From a virus (taxonomy: Duplodnaviria > Heunggongvirae > Uroviricota > Caudoviricetes), in IMG/VR virus record IMGVR_UViG_2645727555_000025, positions 1 to 4,454 of that record: 4,454 nucleotides of DNA; one strand, written 5' to 3'. The translations under genes were made by a program, and so were the position numbers. Shown here piece by piece: positions 1-4,454 of the stretch. The notes under the pieces were generated by a model. The model did no database searches. It saw only the letters and a list, made by a program, of their open reading frames with translations, and was not told where the DNA came from. Position 1 is the stretch's first letter, and each line of letters starts with the position of its first letter.

Positions 1-39
1 TTGACGGACTTCAGGGGAAAAACGAGTATTTTTAGTCAT
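1..39 (-). CDS. IS3-family transposase OrfA, N-terminal 13 codons only (partial, runs off window)
   Basis: ATG at complement 39..37 preceded by AAGAGGT; translation MTKNTRFSPEVRQ... matches the remembered N-terminus of IS629-type OrfA. Confidence 0.65.
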   Translation of the reverse strand, partial: MTKNTRFSPEVRQ

Positions 40-68
40 CCTGTTTACCTCTTTCTCAGGAAGTTTAG

Positions 69-93
69 TCTCCAGGATTCCCGGGGCGGTTCA
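69..93 (-). repeat. Terminal inverted repeat (IRL) of the IS3-family element
   Basis: Reverse complement of 69-93 is TGAACCGCCCCGGGAATCCTGGAGA, a 25-bp end beginning with the 5'-TG typical of IS3-family termini. Confidence 0.65.
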
Positions 94-124
94 AGCAGGT
101 GATTTCAGCTCCGCTTTAAATGAG

Positions 125-706
125 TTGGAGTTAGCTCATGAGCCTATAAACGTAATTAAGGCTGAAAGTGTTGAATCTGCCGAAAACGAGCCAGAACAAT
201 TGGGATTTATTGAGGTTGAAGAGTGTGTTGAGGTTAATGATGAATTAAAAGTTCAACAGTCAAATGATAGCAATACAAATAAAAAAGCTCGTACTGCAAG
301 AGGTCCTCGTTTTACTTTAAGTGATAAAGATGATTTGTTTTTCAATAAAGCAGGCTTAGAAAAAGATATTTTCTTAGACGCTTACGAAAACGCGCCTGTC
401 AAAGCAAAGGATAAGATATTAAACCTTCTTAATTGGTTTAGCGGAGGTCCAGATATTAGTGTTTACACGGTAATTTCCATGAGACACCTTCTCACAGAAA
501 AGAAGGCTACAAGTAATAGTATTAAGATTGCTTTAATGAGCAATCCAGAAAAACCGTATCCGCTTAACACTGCGTCAACTCAGGCTGGGCAAATGATGGC
601 TGTATTTCCAGCTACAGGAATTGCTGTTAGAGACGGTGGAAATCTAACATTGAACGAAGAATCACCGATCGTTAAGAAGTTTGTCGCGGAGTACACTATT
701 GGATGA
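125..706 (+). CDS. Hypothetical protein (193 codons from TTG), acidic N-terminal segment; probably the 3' portion of a gene interrupted by the IS insertion
   Basis: Frame is open from nt 5 to stop at 704-706 with no ATG/GTG before 479 and no convincing SD at TTG 125; the IS end lies at nt 93, so the native 5' end is likely displaced. No recognisable motif. Confidence 0.45.
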   Translation: MELAHEPINVIKAESVESAENEPEQLGFIEVEECVEVNDELKVQQSNDSNTNKKARTARGPRFTLSDKDDLFFNKAGLEKDIFLDAYENAPVKAKDKILNLLNWFSGGPDISVYTVISMRHLLTEKKATSNSIKIALMSNPEKPYPLNTASTQAGQMMAVFPATGIAVRDGGNLTLNEESPIVKKFVAEYTIG

Positions 707-746
707 CGTTCCCCTACTGAAAATAAAGCCCATAGAGAGCTTTATA

Positions 747-776
747 GTGCTGGGTAAGCTAACCCATACCCAGCAC
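747..776. other. Stem-loop (10-bp stem GTGCTGGGTA / TACCCAGCAC, 10-nt loop)
   Basis: Perfect inverted repeat 747-756 versus 767-776, read directly. Confidence 0.4.
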
Positions 777-780
777 CACA

Positions 781-828
781 AAAACGCGCCAGAGAGCTTC
801 TTGTTCGCATTTCTGGCGCGTTTTATTT
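781..828. terminator. Bidirectional rho-independent terminator
   Basis: 13-bp perfect stem AAAACGCGCCAGA (781-793) / TCTGGCGCGTTTT (812-824) with GC-rich core, A-tract on the 5' side and TTTTATTT on the 3' side; lies between the ORF at 125-706 and the methyltransferase gene. Confidence 0.6.
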
Positions 829-857
829 GATTGCCATACATAAAATCAAATGCAAAA

Positions 858-877
858 ATAGGTAATCACTTACCTAT
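858..877. promoter_or_regulatory. Inverted repeat ATAGGTAA-TCAC-TTACCTAT just upstream of the methyltransferase start; candidate operator or translation-initiation hairpin
   Basis: 8-bp arms at 858-865 and 870-877, 4-bp spacer, ending 11 nt before ATG 889 and adjacent to the purine-rich RBS region. Confidence 0.3.
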
Positions 878-888
878 CGAGAAAGAAG

Positions 889-1482
889 ATGATTGCAGCC
901 GAAAAAATCAAACAGCGAAAGCGCGACAACTCTCTTCGTGACCTCTGGAGAACACCTGATTGGCTGTTTTCTGCCATTCAACGTTATCTTGGAGTGACAT
1001 TTGATGTTGACGTTGCCTGCAACAAGGACAATGCAAAGCTGCCTATTTTCATAGGCGTTGAGCGCGATGCTTTGAAATCTGAATGGGGGCAGCCAGGTAC
1101 AATTGCCTTCCTCAATCCACCCTACTCCAAAATCTCCCCCTGGATTGATGCGGCTATACGTGAGCAGGCTCGCGGAGTTACAACAGTGATGCTAATTCCT
1201 CAATCCCTCGATACAAAGTGGTATGAGCGTGCAACAGAGTATGCGAATGAGACGATTATTCTGTCTGGTGGCCGCGTTGCGTTTGTCGAGCCTGACGTCA
1301 ATTTGGGTCAGGTAGAAGTAAACATCAACCCCGGTGGCAGTATGCTCGTTGTTTTTCGAGGGTTTTGTCAGGACGCTGGGCACTCTATAAGCAAGATCCC
1401 TTTGGACGTCATGAAAAGTCTGGGAGGGTATGATCCTGCGAATGTGATCAGGAAAAAAAGACCATCAAAGAAGGCTGCTTAG
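889..1482 (+). CDS. Phage-type DNA N6-adenine methyltransferase (Dam family, Pfam PF05869-like), orphan
   Basis: 197 aa; N-terminal WRTPDWLF motif and NPPYS catalytic motif (the D/N-P-P-Y/F motif IV of amino-methyltransferases); purine-rich stretch before ATG 889. Confidence 0.85.
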   Translation: MIAAEKIKQRKRDNSLRDLWRTPDWLFSAIQRYLGVTFDVDVACNKDNAKLPIFIGVERDALKSEWGQPGTIAFLNPPYSKISPWIDAAIREQARGVTTVMLIPQSLDTKWYERATEYANETIILSGGRVAFVEPDVNLGQVEVNINPGGSMLVVFRGFCQDAGHSISKIPLDVMKSLGGYDPANVIRKKRPSKKAA

Positions 1483-1503
1483 TTTGCTCTGGCGTCTGTA
1501 ATT

Positions 1504-1562
1504 AGCCTGCTTCTGTATATATAAATAACTACATATTAATTATTAATATACGGAAGCAGGCT
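1504..1562. repeat. GC-clamped inverted repeat (12-bp arms) enclosing a 35-nt AT-rich palindromic core; candidate terminator or operator/promoter element
   Basis: AGCCTGCTTCTG (1504-1515) pairs with CGGAAGCAGGCT (1551-1562), one G-U equivalent. Core contains the perfect 17-bp palindrome ATATTAAT-T-ATTAATAT (1533-1549). Lies 22 bp after the methyltransferase stop. Confidence 0.45.
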
Positions 1563-1668
1563 GTTTTGTATCAGAGACTCCCAGACCTGAACATCACTAC
1601 AGAATCCACTAGACCCCCTTCCCAGACGCTTTAAAATCGATTTTATGAACCACTTTAAGGAAACCAAC

Positions 1669-1899
1669 ATGTCATACCCGACTAATGTCGTTGCGCTCGT
1701 AGAGAGCGATTTTCTGGCCCAGGCTCGTGAAATGATGAAAGATCGTGAGCAGGCTTTCAACTTGTACGAGTGGGCAATTAAGTGCTTGCATCTTGGCGAG
1801 CATCGCGAACTTGTTGAACAGCTTTTAGGTGAGTTGATCAATGAGGTGTTTGCCTTGAATGTTCAACTACATGGTCGAGAAAATAATCAATCACAATGA
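1669..1899 (+). CDS. Hypothetical small protein (76 aa)
   Basis: ATG 1669 preceded by AAGGA (1657-1661) at 7-nt spacing, preferred over the ORF-track ATG at 1645 which has no SD. Acidic, helix-like composition; no recognised family. Confidence 0.55.
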   Translation: MSYPTNVVALVESDFLAQAREMMKDREQAFNLYEWAIKCLHLGEHRELVEQLLGELINEVFALNVQLHGRENNQSQ

Positions 1900-2319
1900 T
1901 AGATAAGTACAAACTATTCATAAAGTGAATTGTAAGTGCTAAGATCTGATAGTTTCCAGTCGTAGACTGGAGGCTCGACCTGATGGGTGGGGGTAAGCGT
2001 CACTGGCGTCAGGTTTAAAAAAGCTCACTACCAGCGTAGAACCGGTGCCGTATAGGTGTCGGGGAAGGGGGAACCAAAGTGAGCAGAGACAAGGGTCACT
2101 TTATGATTGTCGAGTCTGGGGTGTTTCGAGAGGTTGAATCCAGTACTCCCCTTCATAAAGTGTGGGAAGATCTCGGTTCTGGGGTGCTGTCATCCATAAC
2201 TTCCCAAGTCTAAGCTGGCAGTAGACTTAGACCATAGCTTTTCAGGTTATGAAACGACCAGGTTGGTGAGGAATTTTATACTCACCTCCCTGGGAGAGTA
2301 TTACCTGAAAAGACAACCT

Positions 2320-2357
2320 CTCACTTCGTTCGAGGTGAACTTCACTCACTTCGTTCG
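2320..2357. repeat. Two perfect 13-bp direct repeats CTCACTTCGTTCG (2320-2332 and 2345-2357) flanking the small palindrome GTGAAC-TTCAC
   Basis: Read directly; about 125 bp upstream of the RNase H start codon. Confidence 0.6.
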
Positions 2358-2418
2358 TTCAGTTCAGGTTTATAAAAACCTGTTCTGGGAAGTAATTTGT
2401 TTATTTTAATAATTATTA

Positions 2419-2443
2419 ACACGCACGCGTGTGCGCACGCGCG
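2419..2443. promoter_or_regulatory. 25-nt perfectly alternating purine-pyrimidine tract (ACACGCACGCGTGTGCGCACGCGCG) with nested palindromes, in the RNase H promoter/5' UTR
   Basis: Strict Pu/Py alternation across 2419-2443; palindromes CACGCGTG (2424-2431) and GTGCGCAC (2431-2438); preceded by an AT-rich stretch (2393-2418) and followed by SD AGGAG (2471-2475). Confidence 0.5.
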
Positions 2444-2480
2444 AGGAAAAATCGGCGCGGCGCTTGATTCAGGAGTTTAT

Positions 2481-3071
2481 ATGACGACGAAGACACCAGC
2501 CCGATCGCAAGCAAAAACTCGCAAAAAAGACAAAAACAAAAATTCTCCCCGCACCAATCCCACAACGCCTGTCGTAGAGTTCAATCCCCAGCTTAAAACC
2601 GTGAAAATCTTTAGTGATGGCTCTTGCCTTAAAAATCCGGGTGGCCCGGGCGGTTACGGTATCGTTCTCCAGTATCGTGGTGAGGAACGCGAGTTCTCAG
2701 ATGGTTTTCATAGCACCACCAATAACCGCATGGAGATGATGGGGGCACTTATCGGGCTGGAGCGTTTGAAATATCCATGCAACGTTATTTTGCACTCTGA
2801 TAGCCAGTATCTGAAAAACGGCATGACACAGTGGATGAAATGGTGGAAACGCAATGGATGGATGACTTCTGACAAAAAACCGGTAAAGAATGTTGATCTG
2901 TGGAAGCGTCTGGATGAGGCCGCAAGTCGACATAATGTTCGCTGGAAGTGGGTTAAAGGTCACGCCGGGCATCGTGAAAATGAAATATGTGATCGACTCG
3001 CGAAGATCGCAGCTTTTTCAGCAGCAGATATGCCTCACAAGAAAGATATTGGTTTTGTTTATAACAAATAG
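2481..3071 (+). CDS. Ribonuclease HI homolog (RNase H type 1 fold) with a ~40-aa basic, low-complexity N-terminal extension
   Basis: 196 aa. From residue ~40 it aligns with E. coli RNase HI as I remember it: catalytic D (IFSDGSC), E (NNRMEMM), D (HSDSQY), H (KGHAGH), D (ICDRLA) and the GYG motif are all present. N-terminal 40 residues rich in K/R/T/P. Strong SD AGGAG 5 nt before ATG 2481, preferred over the ORF-track TTG at 2397. Confidence 0.85.
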
Positions 3072-3168
3072 TAAGTAAGTGTTTACCTATCATTTTAAAT
3101 CATGTATCTTATCGGCGTCAGGATGACAATGTGTCGGTAAGACACAGTTCCAGGATGGAACGAGAAAG

Positions 3169-3190
3169 GCGGCTGGCAATCGCCAGCCGC
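3169..3190 (+). terminator. GC-rich hairpin (9-bp stem, 4-nt loop), possible terminator/attenuator after the RNase H gene
   Basis: GCGGCTGGC-AATC-GCCAGCCGC followed by AACTCTTTCT, a weak U-tract. Confidence 0.4.
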
Positions 3191-3219
3191 AACTCTTTCT
3201 GACACTGGATGGAGTCCAC

Positions 3220-3714
3220 ATGGCACGTCAAACCTATTTCACTTCTGTAACTAAACGTCCTCGTTCTTTACGTCAAATTTTGGCCGAATTATTTAGCGGT
3301 CGTGTTATGTCACGTCTTGATGAACTAGAGACTACCGTTCGGTTGCTGAATGAACGTTTAGATAATCAAGCGTCAGTTGTTGCGAACGTGGGGGCGATTG
3401 TTGCCTCTGGTTCTTCACGCGAAGCGAAAAATGCACGGCCTTTAGTGAAGGAGAAAAACAACAAGGACAGTTCGAATGGAAAATTTTCAAAGAAAGAGGC
3501 TGAAACCAATGGCCTACGTTCTCATTATAGTTTCACTGGCGACGGTAGCCGTTCCAGCCGGTCAGAGCCTTTTGATGCCGGATTCATCCATCACCACACC
3601 TTCGTCGACGACAATTACCACCACTCCAGTGGAGCGTCCTGTCACTCTGGATGGGATGGCGGTGGATGCGATACCTCAAGTTCATCCAGTTACTCAGGAT
3701 CATGCTGTGACTAA
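3220..3714 (+). CDS. Hypothetical protein, predicted coiled-coil N-terminal half; C-terminal third is low-complexity (His/Ser/Cys/Gly) and may not be translated as drawn
   Basis: ATG 3220 with GGAG (3211-3214) at 5-nt spacing; first ~85 codons look like genuine coding sequence (amphipathic LDELETTVRLLNERLDN). From ~3480 the +1 frame looks more gene-like than this frame. Confidence 0.4.
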   Translation: MARQTYFTSVTKRPRSLRQILAELFSGRVMSRLDELETTVRLLNERLDNQASVVANVGAIVASGSSREAKNARPLVKEKNNKDSSNGKFSKKEAETNGLRSHYSFTGDGSRSSRSEPFDAGFIHHHTFVDDNYHHSSGASCHSGWDGGGCDTSSSSSYSGSCCD

Positions 3715-3727
3715 GGCGGTTGTATGA
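3476..3727 (+). CDS. Small secreted or membrane-anchored Thr/Pro-rich protein (83 aa) with N-terminal signal-peptide-like segment
   Basis: ATG 3476 preceded by AAGGA (3463-3467); basic n-region MENFQRKRLKP, hydrophobic h-region MAYVLIIVSLATVAV, then PAGQS and a T/S/P-rich region; codon choice looks typical for enterobacterial genes; stop TGA overlaps the next ATG. Confidence 0.5.
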   Translation: MENFQRKRLKPMAYVLIIVSLATVAVPAGQSLLMPDSSITTPSSTTITTTPVERPVTLDGMAVDAIPQVHPVTQDHAVTKAVV

Positions 3728-3912
3728 ACTGGTTTTCAAATCACTTTGGAAAAATTTGGCTGGCAATTCTTGCCCTCATGGCCGCCGGTTGGGTATCGAA
3801 CATTATAAAACTTGTTTGCTCTGGCGATCTCCAGTTTCAGGCTGGCATGACCTTGGCTCGTGTAGTTGGGATTTTTATTTTTCCAGTCGGTTCGGTACTT
3901 GGTTATTTCTGA
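3724..3912 (+). CDS. Small membrane protein (62 aa, two predicted transmembrane helices)
   Basis: ATG 3724 overlaps the upstream stop (ATGA), SD-like AAGGCGG upstream; hydrophobic segments IWLAILALMAAGWV and LARVVGIFIFPVGSVLGYF. Preferred over the W/C-rich ORF at 3720-3950 in another frame. Confidence 0.5.
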   Translation: MNWFSNHFGKIWLAILALMAAGWVSNIIKLVCSGDLQFQAGMTLARVVGIFIFPVGSVLGYF

Positions 3913-3944
3913 CGGTTGTTAGTGCATATGCATTGACCGTCTTT
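3911..3944 (+). terminator. Hairpin (GACGGT / ACCGTC stem around the palindrome TGCATATGCA) followed by CTTT; possible terminator
   Basis: Arms 3911-3916 and 3936-3941; inner palindrome 3923-3932; short T-run 3942-3944. Confidence 0.35.
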
Positions 3945-4005
3945 GCGTAAGCAATTTATTTAACTAGAAAACAACTTGTTTTGACAAATAACAAAAGGAA
4001 AACAC

Positions 4006-4416
4006 ATGTTAGGTTTCTTCAAAAAGAAAACTCGTAAAGCAGTTATCGAAGTCAAAAAAATGGAGAACCGTGATGCGGTTGAGGCCACCGTGTGGGGCGC
4101 GTACATGATCTCCTATGCCGACGGCACATGTGACGCAAAAGAAATTGCCATTCTTGAGAAGACAATTGCAGCTCTGCCTGCGTTTTCTCCGTTTGCTGGT
4201 GAAATTGCCCAAATGAGCGCCAATATCCGTGCTCGTTACGAAGCGTCCCCTCGTTCTGCTAATGCACAGGCTATTCGTGAGCTGTCTGATATTGCTGGTA
4301 CTCCAGAGGCGGTCGATGTTCTGTGTCTGTGCCTTGATATTGCCGATCAGGATGGCATTGGTCGAGTAGGCAGCCTGACGGCTGCGGCTTGTCATGGTCT
4401 GCAATTACCGTTATAA
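4006..4416 (+). CDS. TerB-fold (tellurite-resistance TerB-like) protein, 136 aa
   Basis: SD AAGGA (3995-3999) 6 nt before ATG 4006. N-terminus M-x-x-FF-K and two A-D-G-containing helical segments (YADGTCDAKEIAILEKTI; DIADQDGIGRVGSL) resemble the paired ADG motifs of TerB as I remember them. Confidence 0.7.
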   Translation: MLGFFKKKTRKAVIEVKKMENRDAVEATVWGAYMISYADGTCDAKEIAILEKTIAALPAFSPFAGEIAQMSANIRARYEASPRSANAQAIRELSDIAGTPEAVDVLCLCLDIADQDGIGRVGSLTAAACHGLQLPL

Positions 4417-4454
4417 AAACAGGCAATGTCATTGTCTTTCAGGTGGTTATATGG

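Follow-up and report, generated by a model that had tools for sequence, protein, structure and literature searches.

An Escherichia coli phage-plasmid tciA gene of the TerB type, very probably interrupted by IS91

Introduction

Bacteriophage P1 carries a tciABC operon whose three genes, tciA, tciB and tciC, proved non-essential by CRISPRi (PMC10695390). The operon is a variable region in P1-like phage-plasmids, about half of P1 subgroup 1 being without it (PMC9603915). TerB domains, the family to which we assign TciA below, occur in the validated defense systems Bunzi, Shango and Dionysus; they are described as amphitropic, with no mechanism known even in validated systems (bioRxiv 10.1101/2025.09.30.679545). 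In DjlA, a TerB-like domain adjoins a membrane anchor (PMC11709261).

The second described system that bears on this locus is the insertion sequence IS91, prototype of a family of rolling-circle elements, the defining features of which were set out in a 2026 study (PMC13181058). It carries an ORF, orf121, upstream of tnpA, an arrangement unique to IS91 within its family, and the product of orf121 is a regulator of IS91 transposition. At its terIS end the element is cleaved at 5'-CTCG beside a subterminal palindrome, while at the other end the target, 5'-GTTC or 5'-CTTG, is adjacent to oriIS and is not duplicated. When termination fails, IS91 can co-mobilize DNA adjoining terIS.

Here we compare these systems with a stretch of 4,454 nucleotides (the window), in which a first-pass annotation had picked out a TerB-fold protein at 4006-4416. 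We conclude with high confidence that this ORF is tciA of a pECOH89/SSU5-like phage-plasmid from E. coli, and that a canonical IS91 insertion separates its codons 119 and 120. The gene family is already known, its annotation going back to the P1 genome record, and the window protein is already labeled by RefSeq.

Results

The Window Is a Phage-Plasmid Segment Bounded by Two Insertion Sequences

The window is the whole of draft contig DF970312.1 (4,454 bp; assembly GCA_001297725.1). One end of IS629 occupies positions 1-93, and one end of IS91 occupies 4362/4363-4454. Between these, positions 93/94-4362 are 99.9% identical to pECOH89/SSU5-type phage-plasmids of E. coli, which are ~110 kb in size. 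Alignment with pECOH89 itself revealed 3 mismatches in 4,268 bases (94-4361), at positions 205, 1678 and 2869, with none in tciA. Searches of phage, plasmid and complete-E. coli collections returned no record whose match to the window ran on past 93..4362, indicating that both window ends are foreign to the phage-plasmid. The features of the window are as follows.

1-93, minus strand: left end of IS629, a contig-breaking repeat, with IRL TGAACCGCCCCGGG... and the start of orfA, which has its ATG at 39 and runs out of the contig on the left

94-4362, plus strand: pECOH89/SSU5-like phage-plasmid segment, assigned by near-identity to pECOH89 and carrying a Dam methylase, an 84-aa ORF, RNase HI, small ORFs and tciA

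94-706, plus strand: 3' part of a hypothetical phage-plasmid gene (PHROG 5235), 5'-truncated by IS629

3724-3912, plus strand: small membrane-like ORF of 62 aa upstream of tciA (PHROG 6006), lineage-specific

4006-4362, plus strand: native part of tciA, a TerB-family gene, codons 1-119 of 141, assigned by identity to pECOH89 TciA

4362-4454, plus strand: left (terIS) end of IS91, the second contig-breaking repeat, 100% identical to IS91 ends elsewhere

4363-4416, plus strand: end of the chimeric ORF, contributed by IS91 and made up of 17 codons (RVGSLTAAACHGLQLPL) plus TAA, the same as IS91 left ends in unrelated plasmids

Positions 1-93 are 100% identical to IS629 copies that Stx phage records annotate as a mobile_element and that terminate at the base corresponding to position 93; an annotated copy has a target duplication of 3 bp. 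Homology to pECOH89 begins at window position 93/94. The PHROG 5235 gene has lost its start and ~66 codons and covers profile positions 78-274 of 274, its full length being 269 aa in pECOH89, Cyrano and cluster members. The TTG at 125, listed as the start of this ORF, is not the native one.

The genes of the phage-plasmid segment all share one strand. Neither an Rfam search (E ≤ 0.1) nor a tRNA scan gave a hit in the window, and a scan for promoters and terminators near tciA found nothing exceeding shuffled expectation. The short contig is the interval between two IS copies. The ORF at 4006-4416 had appeared as the final gene because the draft contig breaks in a repeat, and the ORF itself is a gene disrupted by IS91.

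The ORF at 4006-4416 Corresponds to tciA

The ORF is, as previously delimited, an exact ATG-to-TAA frame on the plus strand; it encodes 136 aa and has AAGGAA 7 nt 5' of its ATG. Residues 1-119 are identical to pECOH89 TciA and, by tblastn, 100% identical to phage CMS-2020a. Residues 1-118 match PHROG 632 with E = 1e-52, and the ORF shares 75-76% identity with P1 TciA. The Cyrano orthologue, CYRAN_85, is annotated as 'P1 TciA-like protein' and is followed by a 'P1 TciB-like protein'. In RefSeq, the window protein is the Escherichia coli entry WP_054192084.1, 'tellurite resistance TerB family protein', for which this contig is the only one on record.

We compared positions 4006-4362 with Klebsiella phage pJN2-26 (~77% DNA identity). 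Substitutions fell 8, 2 and 49 times at codon positions 1, 2 and 3, a distribution that indicates strong purifying selection in the tciA frame. The ORF is a real gene rather than a chance ORF.

In P1, Cyrano and pECOH89, as in almost every cluster member listed, intact TciA is 141 aa long. The closest counterpart, TciA of the pECOH89/SSU5-like phage-plasmids (WP_000900261.1), has the same upstream gene order as the window: Dam, RNase HI, a 164-aa ORF and the 62-aa ORF. The two differ at the 3' side: the pECOH89 and Cyrano orthologues comprise 141 aa and are accompanied by tciB, whereas the window copy is cut after codon 119 and continues into a 17-residue foreign tail. P1 TciA (AAQ14152.1, tciABC operon) is of the same length class and has the same domain, with tciB next to it in P1; tciC, the flanking tRNA genes and the upstream upl/plp genes on the opposite strand belong to P1, and none of these is in the window.

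The tciA Lineage Is Assigned to the TerB Family

The proposal of a TerB fold holds for the lineage. In the HMM search suggested along with it, the window copy taken by itself falls just short, and the refuting outcome (no HMM support) is only narrowly avoided. On the Pfam TerB model (PF05099; gathering threshold 24.4 bits), the window ORF scored 21.1 bits (E = 4e-4), just below the threshold, and its native residues 1-119 scored 16.9 bits. Intact orthologues pass: TciA of Cyrano reached 33.4 bits and that of P1 28.4 bits, and distant homologues reached 60.2 bits (lambdoid phage), 41.6 bits (N4-like phage), 39.5 bits (Pseudomonas phage) and 63.4 bits (Erwinia jumbo phage). The window ORF scores below the threshold because the copy is truncated.

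A profile built from nine diverse TciA/TerB phage proteins, including the intact parent (profile A5), matched the NMR structure 2JXU_A, 'TerB', in the PDB with E = 6.9e-10 and 42.3 bits; the alignment paired profile positions 13-135 with residues 19-144 and included both 'DG...E' repeats. The same profile matched 2OU3, 'Tellurite resistance protein of COG3793', weakly (E = 0.077). Against PDB sequences, phmmer with a single sequence and a shallow profile (A3; 73 sequences, ≥70% identical) returned nothing relevant. TciA is homologous over essentially the whole domain to KP-TerB, the Klebsiella pneumoniae protein of the terZABCDEF operon whose structure is 2JXU. In contrast to TerB of the ter operon, TciA is encoded by a solitary phage gene that is paired with DUF3927 and lacks the company of TerC, TerD and TerZ.

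The paired ADG motifs remarked on in the first-pass annotation were located at residues 37-40 (YADG, within the repeat YADGTCDAKE at 37-46) and 113-117 (ADQDG), both on family-invariant columns (D39, E46 and E51 for the first; A113, G117 and I118 for the second). In intact TciA the motifs extend over residues 37-51 and 113-130, again on invariant columns. The region of the first motif (residues 11-57) aligns to the second-repeat part of the PF05099 profile (positions 60-106), which points to an internal duplication. In the window copy the native part ends with the first half of the second repeat, ADQDGIG (113-119), and the E122, L126 and A130 of that unit are lost.

Predicted structures gave a compatible picture. 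The AlphaFold model of intact TciA (P0001) has six helices (pLDDT 89.8), and in Foldseek searches with this model the chains of 2H5N, an all-helical protein, were the sole credible matches (probability 0.97-1.00, TM 0.50-0.57, E 0.055-0.34), at 16-18% sequence identity; the model of the window ORF matched 2H5N with a probability of 0.93. We take 2H5N to have a TerB-like fold; a literature search found no paper tying 2H5N/PG1108 to TerB. NCBIfam holds no model for TciA, TciB or orf121. On the basis of these sequence comparisons, the tciA lineage belongs to the TerB family and the window copy is a fragment of a member.

The tciA Frame Is Joined to the terIS End of IS91

Homology to TciA ends at codon 119 (window position 4362) against every TciA. 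The sequence from 4362 to 4454 is present as 100% identical copies at many E. coli plasmid sites, and TCGAGTAGGCAGCC... is common to five independent contexts in which it follows unrelated flanks, marking a precise element terminus. The terminal (T)CGAG includes CGAG at 4363-4366, which on the opposite strand reads 5'-CTCG, the site of cleavage at terIS; a subterminal palindrome, GCAGCC/GGCTGC, lies at 4370-4375/4380-4385; and a GGTGG ribosome-binding site is followed by the ATG of IS91 orf121 at 4451. In complete IS91 copies the sequence leads on into an ORF of 121 aa (MARSAKPRKRK...), and the stop of this ORF shares 1 nt with the transposase start. The transposase of these copies scores 288 bits on the NCBIfam model NF033538, 'IS91 family transposase', and the copies are labeled by RefSeq as 'IS91-like element IS91 family transposase'.

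Compared with the IS91 prototype, the last 92-93 bases of the window share the CTCG tetranucleotide, the subterminal palindrome, the orf121 start and the GTTC target, and there are no inverted repeats. Compared with a complete IS91, the window holds only the first ~92 bases, and the oriIS junction lies outside. The terIS end, palindrome, orf121-tnpA arrangement, transposase and target were all found for 4362-4454, partly via complete copies elsewhere. An assignment of this right-hand repeat to an IS66-family element, based on the IS66 tnpB that follows it in p504239_101, was rejected via pCFSAN029787_01 and the complete IS91 copies; the p504239_101 copy is an IS91 end truncated after ~320 bases.

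The uninterrupted gene of pECOH89 provides the sequence of the insertion site. It reads GGC ATT GGT up to the junction and GAA CAA GAA GAG beyond it; the first four bases on the far side, GAAC, give the IS91 target 5'-GTTC when reverse-complemented. Three complete IS91 copies in the same orientation have the oriIS end ...CCTATCGAT followed by GAAC, GGAC and GAAC. If all bases are taken as equally frequent, the next four parent bases would form either canonical target, properly oriented, with a probability of ~2/256, which argues against both mis-assembly and a recombinant allele. From the target rule we infer a simple IS91 insertion in tciA, the far side of the element lying outside the window. 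Under a simple insertion, the rest of tciA, together with tciB, would resume beyond the IS91 oriIS end (GAACAAGAAGAGCAGGC... / GAACAAGAAGAGCAGGCACTGAAAAAGATCGCC). A later rearrangement or deletion on that far side, after IS91 had inserted, is possible.

A different history of the segment must also be weighed, although we consider it unlikely: the 4.27-kb piece may be a dead phage-plasmid remnant that lies between IS elements in another replicon, such as a virulence plasmid or the chromosome, maybe brought there by one-ended transposition of IS91. Consistent with this, the genes at both ends of the segment are IS-truncated, and the segment abuts terIS, the side on which IS91 could co-mobilize adjoining DNA (PMC13181058). 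The GAAC target at the junction, however, fits a fresh simple insertion into tciA, and the mere 3 differences from pECOH89 imply a recent common origin. The window is compatible with both a remnant and a simple insertion, and the conclusion about the ORF is identical for the two.

We attach very little probability to the idea that the junction is an assembly artefact, in which short reads were mis-joined at a repeat edge and tciA is intact in the strain. Such an error is conceivable in a 4,454-bp draft contig with both ends in multi-copy IS elements, but the join coincides precisely with the IS91 terminus and also with a GAAC (GTTC) target oriented as IS91 requires; a random mis-join would not be expected to obey both rules.

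The Conserved Partner of tciA Is the Downstream Gene tciB

A gene for a small DUF3927 membrane protein (PF13064), tciB, lies immediately 3' of tciA in P1 (106 bits), Cyrano/pECOH89 (46.7 bits), JLK-2012 (71.7 bits), FSL SP-076 (45.7 bits) and ZY21 (30.1 bits). The start of pECOH89 tciB overlaps the tciA stop by 1 base (TAATG), and its product is 52 aa long and largely hydrophobic. At least five phage lineages that are unrelated to one another (P1-like, SSU5-like, lambdoid, N4-like and Nickievirus) have kept the tciA-tciB module. In the window, tciA runs into IS91 sequence and tciB is absent from the contig; we expect tciB to have been displaced by IS91 and to lie beyond it. The pair is often found beside tRNA genes; purifying selection on it is strong, and lytic growth does not require it. 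One cluster member of 196 aa (P0095), in which TerB and DUF3927 occur together, was not counted as a domain fusion; it comes from a single contig and looks like the result of a frameshift where stop and start overlap in P1.

The genes upstream of tciA behave differently. They are not the same in P1, JLK-2012, FSL SP-076, ZY21 and Asesino, and the upstream small ORFs of the window showed no similarity to the neighbors of P1 tciA, the comparison of the 62-aa ORF with P1 Upl included; a reading of these ORFs as inverted homologues of P1 upl/plp was rejected on the same ground. Substitutions in the 62-aa ORF numbered 21, 18 and 43 at the three codon positions. These comparisons identify the upstream small ORFs as genes that are not conserved partners of tciA, and the downstream tciB as the partner that is.

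We also screened the locus for links to defense. PADLOC-DB v2 (E ≤ 0.1), a release without Dionysus (2025), matched neither the window ORF nor intact TciA, and neither TciB nor any of the upstream ORFs; the Dam methylase alone matched, to orphan methyltransferase models.

The first-pass annotation had read the ORF as a TerB gene that could belong to one module with the upstream membrane/secreted pair or open a new one, with a possible partner gene at 4451 and possible links to defense components; on this view the gene is intact and stands alone. This account is highly improbable. In its favor are a TerB-family relationship that does exist, the TerB domains of Bunzi, Shango and Dionysus (bioRxiv 10.1101/2025.09.30.679545) and the shared strand of the segment's genes. 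Against it, homology stops at codon 119 and 4363-4454 is IS91; the upstream pair is unrelated to the P1 neighbors, and upstream genes vary among lineages; and TciA, TciB and the upstream ORFs are without a PADLOC match. The apparent downstream partner, the ATG at 4451 after GGTGG, belongs to IS91, where it is the start of orf121.

The Product Is a Chimera That Lacks the Last Helix of TciA

As a consequence of the interruption by IS91, the 136-aa product joins 119 native residues to 17 that derive from the terIS end (RVGSLTAAACHGLQLPL). The tail replaces the native 22-residue C-terminal helix of TciA, and the cut falls mid-way through the second 'ADxDG-I--E---L--IA' repeat. In an alignment of 72 sequences, 13 of the 22 missing positions are ≥90% conserved, and E122, L126, A130 and L135 of the missing helix are invariant among homologues down to 40% identity. 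By accident the IS-derived tail ends in LQLPL, like P1 TciA, and this ending explains why tblastn reports full-length coverage against P1. Of the 17 residues in the tail, only L132, Q133, L134 and L136 agree with aligned TciAs.

A natural allelic or mosaic variant, with a C-terminus acquired by recombination with another phage lineage, would account for the tblastn alignment of residues 1-136 (100% query coverage) to P1 and some Klebsiella phages and for the P1-like LQLPL ending, but it is scarcely credible given that the DNA of the tail matches IS91 termini from unrelated plasmids at 100% identity and runs directly into orf121, that just 4 of 17 tail residues match, that every other cluster member has a native tail, and that the chimeric protein is confined to a single contig. 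Another 136-aa member of the cluster (P0129) was examined as a possible second instance of the junction and rejected; it is a partial sequence at a contig end and keeps the native tail.

The AlphaFold model of the window ORF (pLDDT 83.9) again contains six helices and draws a C-terminal helix for the IS-derived tail. This helix is not evidence of a restored fold, because the intact homologues in the alignment drive the AlphaFold result. Helical packing of the chimera could partly persist via the LQLPL ending. On balance the window copy of tciA is probably inactive, because the last helix, with its invariant second-repeat residues, and the coupling to tciB have been lost. It is conceivable, though improbable in our estimation, that the truncated chimera keeps or alters activity; its adjacency to terIS would allow one-ended co-mobilization by IS91.

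Discussion

The function of TciA is known by homology only, and what follows is correspondingly conditional. Intact TciA would be an all-helical TerB fold of ~141 aa, made of two repeated 'ADG...E...L' helix-loop-helix units, in which E46 and E122 may form an acidic pair that could bind metal. It may act at the inner membrane together with TciB, the two forming a dispensable accessory ('moron') module with a role perhaps in stress sensing or exclusion. We put forward this inner-membrane accessory mechanism tentatively, as a possibility that is rather more likely to be wrong than right; the membrane role is proposed because of the TerB and DjlA literature and the hydrophobic sequence of TciB. 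More speculative still, and in our estimation improbable, is that tciA-tciB might be an unrecognized membrane-acting device for superinfection exclusion, anti-defense or host takeover, and that the IS91-truncated chimera of the window might retain activity.

For users of sequence databases, the finding means that WP_054192084.1 (136 aa) is an IS91 read-through chimera and should be handled as a disrupted gene. ORFs at the edges of draft contigs can bear foreign tails that distort domain scores; here, the tail accompanied a Pfam score below threshold and a falsely complete tblastn coverage. For the biology of the family, the role that the conserved tciA-tciB module plays in phages would be better studied with an intact copy.

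Overlapping reading frames upstream of tciA

The interval upstream of tciA, the TerB-family gene of the window, holds two open reading frames that overlap in different frames:

3220-3714, annotated 164-aa ORF
3476-3727, 83-aa ORF with a signal-peptide/TM-like N-terminus

The end of the 83-aa ORF overlaps the ATG of the next gene (GTATGA). The two ORFs belong to separate PHROGs (10411 for the 164-aa and 15659 for the 83-aa product), and both frames are also open in Klebsiella phage pJN2-26. When substitutions relative to this phage were counted by codon position (positions 1/2/3), the third-position excess 5' of 3476 belonged to the 164-aa frame (31/26/49), and in the overlap region it moved to the 83-aa frame (24/22/32 vs 32/24/22); the signal is weak. 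From these sequence features, we suggest that the true layout at 3220-3727 may be a shortened first gene together with the 83-aa gene.

Between the RNase HI gene and the 164-aa ORF lies a perfect 9-bp GC-rich hairpin (3169-3190; GCGGCTGGC-aatc-GCCAGCCGC), which is terminator-like on both strands by scan score and may act as a terminator in both directions or as a regulatory stem. On the other side of RNase HI, approximately 580 bp without a convincing ORF (1900-2480) separate this gene from an 84-aa ORF. Searching this stretch against Rfam returned no family at E ≤ 0.1. The equivalent of 2079-2213 is annotated as a 44-aa ORF in phage Cyrano, with none annotated in pECOH89, the near-identical E. 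coli phage-plasmid parent, and near 2421-2445 there is an alternating CG/GC-rich palindromic run (ACGCACGCGTGTGCGCACGCGCG).

Insertion sequences

The left contig end is formed by an insertion sequence:

1-93, IS629 copy

A conserved hypothetical gene of the phage-plasmid, 269 aa in full length (PHROG 5235), has lost its start and about 66 codons to IS629 and remains at 94-706. Because this gene is 5'-truncated, the gene call beginning at TTG 125 has an artefactual start.

The same IS91 left end as in the window is carried by p504239_101, an ETEC-type plasmid, in which this end and codons 1-78 of orf121 (2501-2823 of the plasmid locus) are joined directly to an IS66-family tnpB. This fusion is an IS-into-IS rearrangement; assignment of the window's right-hand repeat to the IS66 family, to which the tnpB neighbour had pointed, was rejected. 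A complete IS91 copy is present in the E. coli cq9 plasmid, with GGAC (GTCC on the opposite strand) in place of GAAC after its oriIS side; IS1294b is reported to use GTCC as its target tetranucleotide. The left end of the cq9 copy sits within a DUF4942 gene, and a DUF4942-type gene also occurs downstream of tciB, the DUF3927 gene 3' of intact tciA, in pECOH89.

Neighborhood and delimitation of tciA homologues

In four unrelated phages, tRNA genes adjoin the tciA homologue; the window's pECOH89-type lineage is without tRNA.

tRNA genes beside tciA homologues
P1: Asn and Thr upstream of tciA, Ile 3' of tciC
JLK-2012: Asn, Thr and Gly upstream
ZY21: Arg downstream
Asesino: Trp and Cys upstream

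Some database TciA proteins (P0095, P0010, P0007 and P0099) are over-long through fusions: one (196 aa) is fused to TciB via a frameshift, those of 226 and 175 aa carry added sequence from an upstream ORF, and that of 188 aa has acquired an out-of-frame tail. These fusions are probably sequencing or gene-calling artefacts, and they show that the small tciA gene is frequently mis-delimited in public data.
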